Source of the DNA: a virus
Taxonomy: Duplodnaviria > Heunggongvirae > Uroviricota > Caudoviricetes
Length of the DNA: 36,958 bases
Strand: one strand, 5' to 3'
Virus record (IMG/VR): IMGVR_UViG_2897346870_000003
Coordinates: 1 to 36,958 of that record
The notes under the pieces are model-generated. The model saw only the letters and a program-made list of their open reading frames with translations. It searched no databases and had not been told where the DNA came from. Position 1 is the stretch's first letter. Each line of letters starts with the position of its first letter. Positions 7,563 through 12,726 of the stretch are shown piece by piece. The position numbers were made by a program, and so were the translations under genes.

Positions 7563-8558
7563 GTGACCGTGAGAGCACTACTGACCCCTGAAATTGCCCC
7601 GCGTATGGGGATCGTATTGTTCAGGCCCGGTTCAGAGCTGATGCCCCTGTTTATGCAGGGGCGTGTACTGCTGGAGCCTGAGCCGGAGCATTATTCATCT
7701 TTCGCCAGTGGTGCCGTTCCCGCGGCATCACAACCGCTGGCGGATGATCCTGCCGTTCGGGCCGTGTTCCGCAATGAGGCAGTGATCCGTCGTGCTGGTG
7801 GCGTGGAATGTCTTGAAAGCTGGTTACTTCGTGAAAAAGGCTGCCAGTGGCCTCATTCCGACTGGCACAGCGAGAACATGACCACAATGCGACACGCGCC
7901 GGGCGCAATCCGTCTGTGCTGGCACTGCGATAATCAGTTACGTGATCAGTTCACGGAGCGGCTGGAATCAATGGCAACGGATAACTGTGCCCGTTGGGTG
8001 TTGTCTGTAGTCCGTCGGGATCTCGATTTTAATGATAACCATGCCGTGACAATGCCGGAACTGTGCTGGTGGCTGGTTCGTAATGACCTGGCGGATGCCT
8101 TACCGGAAAGCGCAGCCCGTAAGGCACTGAGATTACCGAAGTCTGTTTTGCCGTCTGTCACCCGGGAAAGTGACCTTGTGCCTTCGGTTCCTGCCACCAG
8201 CATTATCCAGGATAAAGCGAAAAAGGTGCTGGCGCTGAAAGTGGATCCGGAGTCGCCGGAGTCTTTTATGTTACGCCCCAAACGTCGTCGCTGGGTTAAT
8301 GAACAGTACACGCGCTGGGTTAAGACGCAGCCGTGTGCATGTTGTGGAAAGCCAGCTGATGATCCGCATCATCTGATAGGCCATGGTCAGGGTGGAATGG
8401 GTACAAAAGCGCATGACCTTTTTGTGCTGCCTTTGTGCAGAAAACACCACGACGAACTGCATGCGGATACCGTGGCATTTGAAGAGAAGTATGGCTCCCA
8501 GCTGGAGCTGATATTTCGTTTTATCGATCGTGCGCTGGCAATTGGCGTGCTGGCCTGA
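7563..8558 (+). CDS. DUF968-family protein with C-terminal Cys/His zinc-finger-like motif; start codon uncertain
   Basis: 331 aa; C-terminal CACCGK...HHLIGHG...CRKHHDELH; typical rusA-to-Q position. Confidence 0.75.
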   Translation: MTVRALLTPEIAPRMGIVLFRPGSELMPLFMQGRVLLEPEPEHYSSFASGAVPAASQPLADDPAVRAVFRNEAVIRRAGGVECLESWLLREKGCQWPHSDWHSENMTTMRHAPGAIRLCWHCDNQLRDQFTERLESMATDNCARWVLSVVRRDLDFNDNHAVTMPELCWWLVRNDLADALPESAARKALRLPKSVLPSVTRESDLVPSVPATSIIQDKAKKVLALKVDPESPESFMLRPKRRRWVNEQYTRWVKTQPCACCGKPADDPHHLIGHGQGGMGTKAHDLFVLPLCRKHHDELHADTVAFEEKYGSQLELIFRFIDRALAIGVLA

Positions 8559-8575
8559 TTTTGTGGAGAAGGTTG

Positions 8576-8926
8576 ATGCGTGATATGTATGAAGTATTGG
8601 ACCGCTGGGGTGCATGGGCTGCAGCAGATAACAGTGGTGTGGACTGGCAGCCTGTTGCTGCAGGGTTTAAAGGTTTACTACCTCATGGAAAGAAAACACG
8701 CCAACAATGCGATGATGATGAAGGCATCATGATTGACAGCTGTGTTGCGCGATTGCGGAAATATAAGCCAGAAGAATATGAACTGATCATTGCTCACTTT
8801 GTTATCGGTATTTCACTCCGTTCAATAGCAAAGAAACGGAAATGCTCTGACGGGTCAATCAGAAAACAACTTCAAGCAGCAATAGGAGTGATTGAAGGTA
8901 TTTTGTTGATTATTAAGCCCCTGTAG
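8576..8926 (+). CDS. Q: Late-gene antitermination protein Q
   Basis: MRDMYEVLDRWGAWAA... with conserved YELIIAHFVIGISLRSIAKKRKCSDGSIRKQL segment; GGAGAAGG Shine-Dalgarno. Confidence 0.88.
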   Translation: MRDMYEVLDRWGAWAAADNSGVDWQPVAAGFKGLLPHGKKTRQQCDDDEGIMIDSCVARLRKYKPEEYELIIAHFVIGISLRSIAKKRKCSDGSIRKQLQAAIGVIEGILLIIKPL

Positions 8927-8929
8927 GGC

Positions 8930-9514
8930 TTAATAATTCATATGAATTCTGTTTCCGAGATAATATAATCCAAAGAAAGTTGATACTAAGAGTTGCCAAA
9001 CGAGGAAAGTAAATACAACAGTATAAACCATTAAAACAATACTGTTTTGATAGACATTGATTAATGGTGAAAATATAGCATTAAGTATTATTATAACAAT
9101 GCTTAATGCTGTTAAAAAAGAGAATAGCATGCAAAGAAATAATCGTCTGGTCAGAACCTCCTCTGAATTTACTACTTTTCCATTTTCTTTTGTTACTTTT
9201 ATTTCAATAGAGGCATTTCTTTCATTGCTAATCAATGGTAAATCAATCTCAGCTCTATTGAAAGTTGCTATGGCGGCCAGAGCGGCAATATAAAACCCTG
9301 GTAGGTTAGAGATAAATGAAACGATTGATTTAATGAAACCATTGTCATCAAATAAATCTTTGACAGGGATTTTTAATAGAATGAAAAGTACTGCTGTGAT
9401 AGAAGTAAGTAGAATTGGTGCTACCCAATCATATGCAGCTTTGCCGCTAATACCTTTAATAAAAAGATATCCAAACGGCTTGCCTAGATGAGAGAAAACT
9501 GAAAGTATTGGCAT
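8930..9514 (-). CDS. Hypothetical 194-aa integral membrane protein with four predicted TM helices (candidate membrane effector)
   Basis: Four hydrophobic helices (WVAPILLTSITAVLFILL; IVSFISNLPGFYIAALAAIATF; LFLCMLFSFLTALSIVIIILNAIF; IVLMVYTVVFTFLVWQLLVSTFFGLYYL); GAGG Shine-Dalgarno; 7-nt gap to the upstream gene. Confidence 0.75.
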   Translation of the reverse strand: MPILSVFSHLGKPFGYLFIKGISGKAAYDWVAPILLTSITAVLFILLKIPVKDLFDDNGFIKSIVSFISNLPGFYIAALAAIATFNRAEIDLPLISNERNASIEIKVTKENGKVVNSEEVLTRRLFLCMLFSFLTALSIVIIILNAIFSPLINVYQNSIVLMVYTVVFTFLVWQLLVSTFFGLYYLGNRIHMNY

Positions 9515-9521
9515 AATAACC

Positions 9522-10544
9522 TCACATCAAATCTATCATTTTCACAACAAACTCTAGTTCAATTTTAACATATGAATCCTTCAGGCGCGAATTAAAGTTA
9601 TCGATAATGCTTTTCTTAATAAATGTTTTTTCTAAATTATTAAGATTGATGTTTGAGGTTTTGAAATCAACCTGCCTTGGTTTATTTGTTTCAGGATCTT
9701 GGAATTTAACCTTTAATTTATCATAACCACCATTCATTTTTTTATTGAAATGAGATGCTACATTTTTAATCCATCCAATAACATTGTCACCATGATTTGG
9801 AAGTAATTTTAATGTACTTTCAGTCGGAATGTAAGGTGAATTAACATCAGGAGCATTAATTGTTCCGAATTGATCCTTGACTAATATGACATCTGATAAT
9901 CCTTTTTGGCTTATTTTATTAAAAAGCTCCTTGTCTAACATTCCTGTAAATTCAAATATTGGTTTGTATCGTATTTTTACTTCTTTTTTTGATGTTGCAG
10001 AAATAACGTTAGTTGGATGTTTTGCGGTAAATAAGTCTTCATTGTCTTTCGCCACTTCAAAGAGAATTTTGTCTAAAAAACTATTTAACCGGGCCGTAGA
10101 TACACCTGGGGTAGATGTACAAATCATATCATAGGTTCTTTTATTTCCATTTAATGATATGACAACATAGGTAGAAACTTCATAGCCTTCACCTTGTTCA
10201 TATTTTGGTTGGATTTCAACGCGTTCATTAGTATTTATATTTTTTACAACGGTAGTACTTCCATTTTTATCAACACTATTAATAAGAAGGACAATATGCG
10301 TGGGTGAGTTATCTGGAAGTAAAGGATAAAGTTGTACATCTTGGAGAGTAACTACAATATTCCCAGAATCATATGAATGAACGAGTCCCTTTTGTTTAAC
10401 AATCAATGGGGCAAGCATGTACATTTCCGGAACAGGACATATACACTGGGCTTTTACCTCTTGTGTTGCCTTGGTTCTAAACTTTGTGTCAATGGTCAGA
10501 CTATGATGAGTAACGAGTCTTTCGCTAGCATTTAATTTTGCCAT
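9522..10544 (-). CDS. Hypothetical 340-aa soluble protein; first gene of an AT-rich antisense cargo operon (candidate sensor of a defence-like pair)
   Basis: Long ORF antisense to the late operon, visibly AT-rich with Lys/Asn-rich product; no family recognised by eye; no nucleotidyltransferase GS...DxD motif seen. Confidence 0.75.
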   Translation of the reverse strand: MAKLNASERLVTHHSLTIDTKFRTKATQEVKAQCICPVPEMYMLAPLIVKQKGLVHSYDSGNIVVTLQDVQLYPLLPDNSPTHIVLLINSVDKNGSTTVVKNINTNERVEIQPKYEQGEGYEVSTYVVISLNGNKRTYDMICTSTPGVSTARLNSFLDKILFEVAKDNEDLFTAKHPTNVISATSKKEVKIRYKPIFEFTGMLDKELFNKISQKGLSDVILVKDQFGTINAPDVNSPYIPTESTLKLLPNHGDNVIGWIKNVASHFNKKMNGGYDKLKVKFQDPETNKPRQVDFKTSNINLNNLEKTFIKKSIIDNFNSRLKDSYVKIELEFVVKMIDLM

Positions 10545-10580
10545 GAAATCATCCGATTATGATTTTTCGATTTATTTGTT

Positions 10581-10609
10581 AATCTTACAAAAACGCTAAC
10601 GCGTACGCA
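10581..10609 (-). promoter_or_regulatory. Candidate sigma70 promoter for the antisense cassette (minus strand TTGCGT-17-TAAGAT)
   Basis: Hexamers read on the minus strand about 35 nt upstream of the 340-aa gene start. Confidence 0.35.
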
Positions 10610-10655
10610 AAAATTATTGTATCGTGTTAAGAGTGGTTACTTCGCCACACAGCTT

Positions 10656-10687
10656 AAACCCGCCGTCGAGCGGGTTTTGTCGTTTCT
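10656..10687 (+). terminator. Rho-independent terminator on the plus strand upstream of holin; candidate tR' (Q target)
   Basis: AAACCCGC-CGTCGA-GCGGGTTT followed by a T-rich tract, about 140 nt before the holin gene. Confidence 0.5.
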
Positions 10688-10829
10688 GGGGCTGGGGATT
10701 CGTTGGTCCTGGTCTATTCCGCAGTTATCCATTGGTTCGGCTTCTTTGACGTTTCCGCTTCTAATTTGCTGTACATGATGTTCCCTCAATTTGCACCTGC
10801 TGTATCAGCGAGGTGAGAGATAACTACAA

Positions 10830-11156
10830 ATGCCTCATAACCCAAATACCTGGCTGGAGTTGTTCCAGAGCTGGTGGCGTGGAGACACACCGCTGGGCGC
10901 AGTGATTATGTCGATCGTTATGGCTGGCTTGCGCATTGCCTATTTTGGCGGTGGTGGTGGCTGGAAACGAAAAACGCTCGAGATTTTGCTCTGTGGTGCT
11001 CTGACGCTGACTTTTGCATCCGCTCTTGAGTATGTCGGATGGCCTAAATCTCTTTCTGTTGCCATTGGTGGCGGCGTTGGGCTGATCGGGGTCGATGCTA
11101 TTCGTGGGGCTGCAATGAGAGTAATCGGTAATAAGTTTGGTGGCTCTAAGGAGTAA
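10830..11156 (+). CDS. Holin (three predicted TM segments)
   Basis: 108 aa, hydrophobic segments, charged C-terminus, directly upstream of the endolysin. Confidence 0.75.
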   Translation: MPHNPNTWLELFQSWWRGDTPLGAVIMSIVMAGLRIAYFGGGGGWKRKTLEILLCGALTLTFASALEYVGWPKSLSVAIGGGVGLIGVDAIRGAAMRVIGNKFGGSKE

Positions 11157-11159
11157 TTT

Positions 11160-11636
11160 ATGCAGGTACTAAATTCCCAGCGTAAAGCTTTCCTCGATAT
11201 GGTGGCATGGTCAGAAGGAACGGATAACGGGCGAAAACCGACACGTAACCACGGTTATGATGTTATTGTCGGTGGAGAACTCTTCACTGATTACTCCGAT
11301 CACCCTCGCAAGCTTGTCACGCTAAACCCGAAACTCAAATCAACAGCTGCAGGCCGTTATCAACTTCTTTCGCGCTGGTGGGATGCTTACCGCAAGCAGT
11401 TAGGGCTGACAGACTTCTCTCCTAAAAGCCAGGATGCTGTTGCATTACAGCAGATTAAAGAGCGTGGCGCTTTACCGATGATTGATCGCGGCGATATTCG
11501 TCAGGCTATCGATCGTTGCAGCAATATCTGGGCGTCGTTACCTGGTGCAGGTTACGGTCAGTATGAACATAAAATCGGTGACCTGATTTCCCGGTTTAAA
11601 GAGGCTGGTGGGGTGGTAAATGAAGTTGAGCTATAA
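11160..11636 (+). CDS. R: Endolysin, lambda R-type lytic transglycosylase
   Basis: 158 aa; near-collinear with the lambda R sequence as recalled (QRKAFLDMVAWSEGTDNGRKPTRNHGYDVIVGGELFTDYSDHPRK...). Confidence 0.95.
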   Translation: MQVLNSQRKAFLDMVAWSEGTDNGRKPTRNHGYDVIVGGELFTDYSDHPRKLVTLNPKLKSTAAGRYQLLSRWWDAYRKQLGLTDFSPKSQDAVALQQIKERGALPMIDRGDIRQAIDRCSNIWASLPGAGYGQYEHKIGDLISRFKEAGGVVNEVEL

Positions 11637-12330: not shown

Positions 12331-12726
12331 TTAGTCCTGCATGAATCTCTCTCTTTCTATTTCATAACCGTCGCTTTCTTCTCGGCAGTTTTGACATAAG
12401 AGATCTCCATAGTAACCTTGTAAGTTATAAGCTTCTTCTAGCTCATAGCCAGAGATAACCTTAGAGCAACCGTTATGGTGCCCGCCTGGATTTCTAACAC
12501 CACCACATGGGTGAGAAAGGAAAGGTTGCAATACCCTCTTTTGCGGTGCAGAAAGACTATCAAATCCTTTGGTTACAGCTAACTTAGCGATTCCACTAAC
12601 TTTGCCATCTTCATGATAAAATGCGTCACAATTAAGCATTGTATTGAGTAATGATTCTACTTCGTCAGACACTGGAAATACCTCTCTATAAACAAAAGTA
12701 ATAGCTATCACACAAAGCTTAAGCAC
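12331..12726 (-). CDS. Hypothetical Cys/His-rich small protein (up to 131 aa; start uncertain, ATG at 12639 possible)
   Basis: ORF in an AT-rich antisense island; C-terminal HPCGG...GGHHNGC...CQNC motif suggests a zinc-binding fold; no clear Shine-Dalgarno. Confidence 0.5.
   Translation of the reverse strand: MLKLCVIAITFVYREVFPVSDEVESLLNTMLNCDAFYHEDGKVSGIAKLAVTKGFDSLSAPQKRVLQPFLSHPCGGVRNPGGHHNGCSKVISGYELEEAYNLQGYYGDLLCQNCREESDGYEIERERFMQD

Follow-up and report, generated by a model that had tools for sequence, protein, structure and literature searches.

A probable RexAB-type phage-exclusion pair of the PDC-M53 family behind the antiterminator gene Q of an e14/SfII-type prophage

Introduction

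The viral sequence IMGVR_UViG_2897346870_000003 (36,958 nt; the whole of this stretch is called the window, and all coordinates refer to it) carries two adjoining minus-strand genes between the antiterminator gene Q and the lysis genes, which raises the question of what such a pair does for the prophage that bears it. Gene A (9522..10544, minus strand) encodes a soluble, basic protein of 340 aa with an isoelectric point of 8.9, and gene B (8930..9514, minus strand) encodes a membrane protein of 194 aa. A preliminary description had taken the cassette for an undescribed abortive-infection or defense module whose larger protein belonged to no recognizable family. In this study, we compared both proteins with defense-system, domain and structure collections and the locus with related phages. 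The results suggest that the cassette is probably a RexAB-type two-component phage-exclusion system, expressed from the lysogen as cargo that an e14/SfII-type prophage carries in its post-Q slot.

Results

Along their whole length, both proteins matched profiles of PDC-M53, a candidate system of PADLOC. Protein A aligned with PDLC04696 (PDC-M53A) at E 2.1e-32, residues 7-340 falling on profile positions 4-318 of 320, and matches to four other PDC-M53A models ranged from 1e-12 to 1e-15, which overturns the statement that it lacks a recognizable family. Protein B aligned with PDLC04699 (PDC-M53B) at E 1.8e-54, its residues 6-193 covering profile positions 2-187 of 188. The two genes also show the PDC-M53 arrangement, adjacent on one strand with A before B and a gap of 7 nt, and the A-then-B arrangement was present in eight other loci as well. 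Pfam and NCBIfam returned nothing for either protein, and PHROGs placed them only in the unknown-function families 9879 and 8257. PDC-M53 entered PADLOC-DB v2.0.0 (2023) among the PDC systems, which are unpublished and unvalidated candidates, and no mention of it was found in the literature searched.

An experimentally characterized representative of this family could be identified in RexABpp (PP_5643/PP_5644), a validated anti-phage pair from prophage P1 of Pseudomonas putida described in a paper that makes no mention of PADLOC (Rosendahl et al., Sci Rep 2026, PMC12894663). The rexABpp locus was recovered from the cloning primers in the supplement of that paper, which encode termini resembling the A and B families, by an exact-pattern scan of IMG/VR; the same pattern for rexBpp was found in viral contigs and gave nothing in genome contigs. 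The recovered locus is matched by 11 of the 14 primers, and the calculated mass of RexApp-His6 (37.5 kDa) equals the published value. For RexApp, the E-value was 8.4e-157 with PDC-M53A and 9e-57 with the sub-model giving the best match to protein A of the window; RexBpp matched PDC-M53B at E 2.8e-72. Alignment of the A-family profile with RexApp by hhalign gave a probability of 100% (E 2.5e-47, 315 columns), and protein B shared 37% identity with RexBpp in BLASTP (E 2e-32). Given the shared hidden Markov models (HMMs), the profile alignment and the identity between the B proteins, the cassette belongs, on sequence grounds, to the PDC-M53/RexABpp family, as a divergent member from enterobacteria. 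The equation of PDC-M53 with RexABpp appears not to have been stated before in the literature searched. The preliminary reading was thus right in substance about a defense-related, Rex-like pair, and wrong in calling it undescribed, as it had already been catalogued as PDC-M53.

Protein A showed no hydrophobic segment by hydropathy, and a fold search assigned it a two-domain fold like that of lambda RexA and RdgC. Foldseek comparison of its model with the Protein Data Bank (PDB) gave no match at E<1e-3 and only weak partial matches to lipocalin/START/Aha1-type folds, and the A-family profile, run as an HMM against PDB sequences, gave none. The absence of a nucleotidyltransferase motif, as noted previously, was borne out: no PADLOC or Pfam cyclase or nucleotidyltransferase profile matched, and the fold is of the RexA/RdgC and not the Pol-beta nucleotidyltransferase type, so that identity with CBASS type I or Pycsar systems was rejected. 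An exhaustive profile search at E<=1e-3 collected at least 274 clusters (50% identity) of the A family, mostly of 310-340 aa.

Protein B has four hydrophobic segments by hydropathy (~27-49, 64-85, 123-148 and 157-184), and the AlphaFold2 model (pLDDT 87.5) agrees, so the earlier count of four transmembrane segments stands. The model further displays an N-terminal amphipathic segment and a beta-hairpin within a central cytoplasmic loop of ~40 aa. By the positive-inside rule only, the protein is predicted to be N-in/C-in, with both termini on one side. The B family comprises at least 682 clusters (90% identity), is more conserved than the A family and contains the invariant motifs LPGFYIAALAAIATF, TRR and GLYYLG. 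Against viral models (BFVD), Foldseek gave no significant match for protein B, and the outlier in TM-score was a 165-aa protein of mycobacteriophage Sbash (TMq 0.40, 178 columns), the other listed matches reaching at most 0.26. In the Sbash genome, which was located via Che9c homology, gene 31 is the sole coding sequence (CDS) of 165 aa.

The pairing of the two families recurs on mobile elements. In Shewanella, Halomonas, Vibrio, Chromobacterium, Aeromonas and Serratia, each B homolog looked up followed a same-strand gene of 321-340 aa that has no Pfam match, and the two such genes tested against the models were both PDC-M53A. Contexts included a Halomonas prophage region beside an Eco29kI restriction-modification system and an integrative element in Chromobacterium; in Serratia marcescens the pair (340+191 aa) directly adjoins int of a P4-like satellite (L011/L012:6971-8576), a site that matches the psu-int antiviral hotspot (Rousset et al.). 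In L012, this satellite is next to the integrase and repressor of a P2/186-like prophage. Family members come from Gamma- and Betaproteobacteria, where lambdoid prophages, P4-like satellites and integrative elements carry them. A second pair of 330 + 197 aa in the Vibrio locus is not PDC-M53 and matched no PADLOC or Pfam family. The rexABpp genes are likewise AT-rich within their prophage (GC 0.45 vs 0.58 for the locus; L018:573-2134, IMG/VR), and in all its settings the family has the appearance of cargo gained by horizontal transfer.

Among 5426 complete E. coli genomes, 24 carried the cassette, nine of them with the present allele (>=99.8% identity) and 15 with a second allele of ~67% DNA identity in the same slot. 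Measured against the second allele, gene A had a ratio of nonsynonymous to synonymous polymorphism (pN/pS) of ~0.35 and gene B one of ~0.29, synonymous sites being saturated. These ratios indicate purifying selection on both genes. In strain VTB96816v the second-allele gene A is annotated with 301 aa vs 342 aa in strain JMF1 (L019:1315-2220); this gene may be 5'-truncated and is possibly a decaying copy. Compared with seven loci outside Enterobacterales, protein A of the window was 21-30% identical and protein B 41-49%. That A diverges much faster than B suggests that A is a variable sensor which sets trigger specificity and that B is the conserved, common effector.

The cassette lies in a setting that largely agrees with the preliminary description. 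The two open reading frames are present as described, and the 7-nt junction (9515..9521, minus strand) reads as a GAGG Shine-Dalgarno (SD) sequence for B overlapping the TGA stop codon of A, which makes translational coupling from A to B likely; each gene had been credited with its own SD, and that ahead of A is weak. Convergent with the cassette lies the antiterminator gene Q (8561..8926, plus strand; Pfam PF06530 Phage_antitermQ, E 8.7e-45), whose stop codon is 3 nt from that of B, and on the other side follow the lambda-family holin gene S (10830..11156, plus strand; PF05106 Phage_holin_3_1, E 6.6e-25), after it an endolysin gene (11160-11636) and then a spanin gene (RefSeq annotation). The marked AT-richness was confirmed, GC being 0.28-0.35 over 8800-10600 (~0.32 in the cassette genes) vs 0.50-0.58 on either side, as was the Lys/Asn-rich composition (10.6% Lys and 8.2% Asn in protein A). 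In the RefSeq record of E. coli PF9285, whose sequence is that of the window over 8500-11200, an e14/SfII-type prophage with intE, xisE, ymfK and ymfT is inserted at icd, and both genes are annotated as hypothetical. Shigella phage SfII carries the same cassette as its genes 49 and 50, with an identical protein A and a protein B that differs by one residue.

Further features were observed around the locus. Just upstream of Q, a DUF968 protein (7563-8558, plus strand) also matches HNHc_6 (putative HNHc nuclease) at E 3e-06, just above the Pfam cut-off. A second AT-rich island (12331-12726; GC 0.36-0.43) separates the spanin genes from the HNH/terminase genes. It contains a Cys-rich minus-strand open reading frame of 131 aa from GTG (the RefSeq CDS is shorter, ~113 aa) without Pfam match, and may be further accessory cargo. 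In PF9285, the interval from icd to intE, just beyond the window (locus L021:7025-10863), contains an AAA-family ATPase gene (2.6 kb, ~860 aa) and a gene of the ComEC/Rec2 family, which might form a separate accessory or defense-like insertion.

Both ends of the cassette are marked. On the left, a hairpin at 8908..8938 (13-bp stem with a perfect 11-bp core, 5-nt loop) covers the two convergent stop codons (Q TAG 8924-8926, B TAA 8930-8932) and is a candidate bidirectional terminator and cassette boundary, with a minimum free energy of -16.8 kcal/mol on either strand and z-scores of -5.75 (plus) and -5.56 (minus). On the right, alignment of four loci delimited a conserved phage backbone block of ~85 bp (10596..10680, plus strand) that is common to phages with different cassettes. 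Inside it, a terminator scan found a tR'-like hairpin at 10656-10677 (plus strand) followed by a T-run (fold z -2.3), in agreement with the described position of the cassette upstream of this hairpin and the holin gene. A promoter scan identified no sigma-70 PR' promoter on the plus strand between cassette and hairpin. The candidate leftward promoter TTGCGT-17-TAAGAT (10610->10582, minus strand) lies 37 nt upstream of the ATG of A, its -35 element being inside the backbone block. It fits the consensus at 7 of 12 positions and was not called by a promoter consensus scan, so the promoter proposed earlier is weak by that standard. Nevertheless, TTGCGT at -35 and a TAnnnT hexamer at exactly 17 nt recur 32-39 nt ahead of the first ATG in four different cassettes (TAAGAT here, and TAAACT, TATATT and TAGAAT), and this conservation with fixed spacing favors a real leftward promoter.

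Comparison of the locus across phages, as proposed in the preliminary description, revealed variable cargo in the post-Q slot. In Stx2a_1447 (AP012536), an Stx2a-converting phage of E. coli O157:H7, an antisense pair of 343 aa and 179 aa (four transmembrane segments) directly follows Q (L005:4438-6001); E. coli FDAARGOS_1373 has a post-Q antisense pair of 273 aa and 161 aa (four transmembrane segments; L006:1946-3276), and mEp460 (mEp460_4F5, L007:1966-2892) a single gene of 308 aa. These three cassettes are AT-rich, antisense and unrelated in sequence, all stand behind the TTGCGT-17-TAnnnT element, and none matched a PADLOC, Pfam or PDC-M53 profile. At least three sequence-unrelated post-Q cassettes, those of PDC-M53, Stx2a_1447 and FDAARGOS_1373, therefore share the design of a soluble protein of 270-345 aa and a four-transmembrane protein of 160-195 aa. 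In Stx2a_1447, stx2AB lies ~2 kb beyond the antisense pair, past the conserved hairpin block, a methylase gene and three tRNA genes, and the cassette slot is thus not the stx slot, contrary to what had been supposed.

Discussion

Four observations support the view of the cassette as a RexAB-type exclusion system: membership in PDC-M53, the four transmembrane segments of B, the RexA/RdgC-like fold of A, and the A-then-B pairing on mobile elements. In the closest characterized homolog, deletion of RexABpp sensitizes P. putida to foreign phages and both genes are needed for defense; RexApp binds DNA non-specifically and triggers a toxicity that requires RexBpp, namely B-dependent membrane damage or growth arrest (PMC12894663). 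By analogy, A would be a DNA-binding, probably dimeric sensor and activator that responds to a phage-derived signal; once activated, it would engage the cytoplasmic face of an oligomeric four-helix B, which would act as the membrane-damaging effector and compromise the inner membrane by depolarization or permeabilization, whereupon growth and ATP-dependent synthesis would stop and the infection would be aborted.

Several points weigh against this reading. First, protein A is barely alignable with RexApp (~19-21% identity, pairwise BLASTP E 0.026), and its trigger and behavior may therefore differ from those of RexABpp. In the A-family motif EG..S.H..I, the His is conserved in at least 90% of members and nearly invariant; the window protein has Tyr126 in its place (codon 10167-10169), its closest relatives also have Tyr, and two other proteins have Phe. 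This substitution argues against a catalytic role of the residue or indicates a change of function in this clade. Second, the sequence-level tests against lambda and Sbash proteins were all negative. With Pfam PF15969, the Pfam RexB model and PADLOC PDLC02339/02340, the window proteins gave no match at E<=1, and RexA/RexB models gave none at E<=10 among 116 A-family and 56 B-family members, lambda RexA (9e-110) and RexB (9e-61) serving as positive control. By hhalign, the A family scored 0.5% against lambda RexA alone, 1.5% against a 25-sequence RexA family and 0.5% against Sbash gp30, and the B family 0.7% against RexB and 0.1% against gp31; the Foldseek match between B and gp31 is not significant by itself (E 1.3, probability 0.47). 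A published HHpred search linked PP_5643 to RexA at 98% (PMC12894663), a link that hhalign did not reproduce at the alignment depth used here, so that the connection to lambda Rex depends on the fold and on that published result. Third, the pair is not beside the repressor gene, unlike in lambda and P. putida. Finally, a two-hybrid assay detected no interaction between RexApp and RexBpp, and most RexBpp-arrested cells stayed intact (PMC12894663).

The last of these findings also suits the main rival explanation, an exchange of roles as in Butters gp30/gp31 or Kiwa, in which A would be the antiviral effector, for example by clamping phage DNA and blocking its replication or recombination, while B would anchor, sequester or sense, and the host would be left unharmed. 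The RdgC/RexA-like fold of A is compatible with it, as RdgC-type rings bind DNA and inhibit RecA according to the literature, and the RexA-like protein of Butters is an effector sequestered by its RexB-like partner (PMC12894663). On the other side, it is through RexBpp that the closest characterized homolog is toxic, with RexApp as trigger and both required; B is the more conserved partner, as expected for a common effector; and neither protein matches the KwaA/KwaB HMMs. We consider such an exchange of roles unlikely, although it deserves more weight than the readings that follow.

The position between a late-gene regulator and the lysis genes might instead point to the prophage's own biology, the pair acting on the lysis-lysogeny switch, host energetics or proteolysis and not on other phages; in the literature, lambda RexA biases the CI/Cro switch independently of RexB, and RexB inhibits ClpXP/ClpAP. 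Yet the pair lies antisense to the late operon and at a distance from the repressor (ymfK region), the family also occurs in P4-like satellites and integrative elements without a lambdoid switch, and loss of the P. putida homolog exposes the host to foreign phages, which makes a mainly internal role improbable. Even less credit can be given to B as a lysis-timing or superinfection-exclusion (Sie) membrane protein, antiholin-like or blocking DNA injection, with A as an accessory. B is close to the holin, endolysin and spanin genes and is small with several transmembrane segments, like many Sie or Imm proteins, but it is oriented opposite to the lysis genes, its family occurs away from lysis cassettes, neither Pfam nor PHROGs gave a holin or Sie family match, and this reading would offer no account of why B is strictly paired with a cytoplasmic protein of RexA-like type. 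Decaying or functionless acquired DNA, to which the AT-richness, the purely hypothetical annotation and the presence in so few E. coli genomes might point, is disfavored as the least probable reading of all, since both reading frames are intact and nearly unchanged in SfII, pN falls well short of pS in the comparison with the 58-65% allele, and the family HMMs match from end to end.

An exclusion system of the RexAB type therefore stays the preferred explanation, and it gives a function that can be assigned to WP_004030019 (SfII_50) and WP_001122064 (SfII_49), both hypothetical in RefSeq. It also ties an unpublished PADLOC candidate to an experimentally validated RexAB-type system, and a pair native to E. 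coli, together with coliphage tools, could help with the old question of Rex activation. The side finding on the post-Q slot may be more interesting than the cassette itself. It is conceivable, though we would not presume it, that the post-Q slot of e14/SfII/Stx2a-type lambdoid phages is a plug-in hotspot in which a leftward promoter of the backbone (TTGCGT-17-TAnnnT) drives whichever cassette is resident, and that the other pairs are Rex-like as well. If so, Rex-type exclusion would be a far wider and more modular class than the five systems reported to date suggest, with the divergent A found here recognizing a trigger other than that of RexApp. A cargo slot with a shared promoter-like element may hold more undescribed two-gene systems, one of them in Stx2a phages.

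Among known systems, Kiwa likewise combines a four-transmembrane protein of ~190 aa with a soluble protein of ~320 aa, and KwaB binds DNA. However, its gene order is reversed, KwaA (four transmembrane segments) preceding KwaB (DUF4868), and neither the PADLOC HMMs of KwaA/KwaB nor Pfam DUF4868 matched the window proteins, so that identity with Kiwa was rejected; a literature search for KwaB together with RdgC found nothing relevant. The kinship with Kiwa, Pycsar or CBASS type I that had been considered is accordingly given up, the respective PADLOC and Pfam profiles not being matched. The suggested likeness to RexA/RexB holds for the fold of A, the four-transmembrane partner and the homology to RexABpp, and fails at the level of RexA/RexB sequence models. 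In lambda, where both genes are required for exclusion as they are in the homologous pair of P. putida, rexAB lies in the immunity region and is co-transcribed with the repressor, neither of which applies to the present cassette; protein A is 61 aa longer than RexA and protein B 50 aa longer than RexB, with the ~40-aa cytoplasmic loop and its beta-hairpin. Such a loop is comparable to Sbash gp31's central cytoplasmic loop, which is functionally important according to the literature. Sbash gp30/gp31 is a validated Rex-like pair with gp31 as RexB-like effector and both genes required for exclusion, and gp31 is the best, non-significant, structural match to protein B among the BFVD viral models; the Sbash pair, from an actinobacterial host like gp44/gp43 of Gordonia phage CarolAnn, has no sequence similarity to the cassette. 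The nearest characterized relative is RexABpp, from which the present pair differs in fitting another PDC-M53A sub-model (PDLC04696, vs PDLC04694 for RexApp) and in lying antisense after Q in Escherichia/Shigella, whereas RexABpp sits downstream of a CI-like repressor in P. putida. The gene-pair family had been catalogued and its P. putida member was validated in 2026; what is new is a divergent member in E. coli and Shigella.
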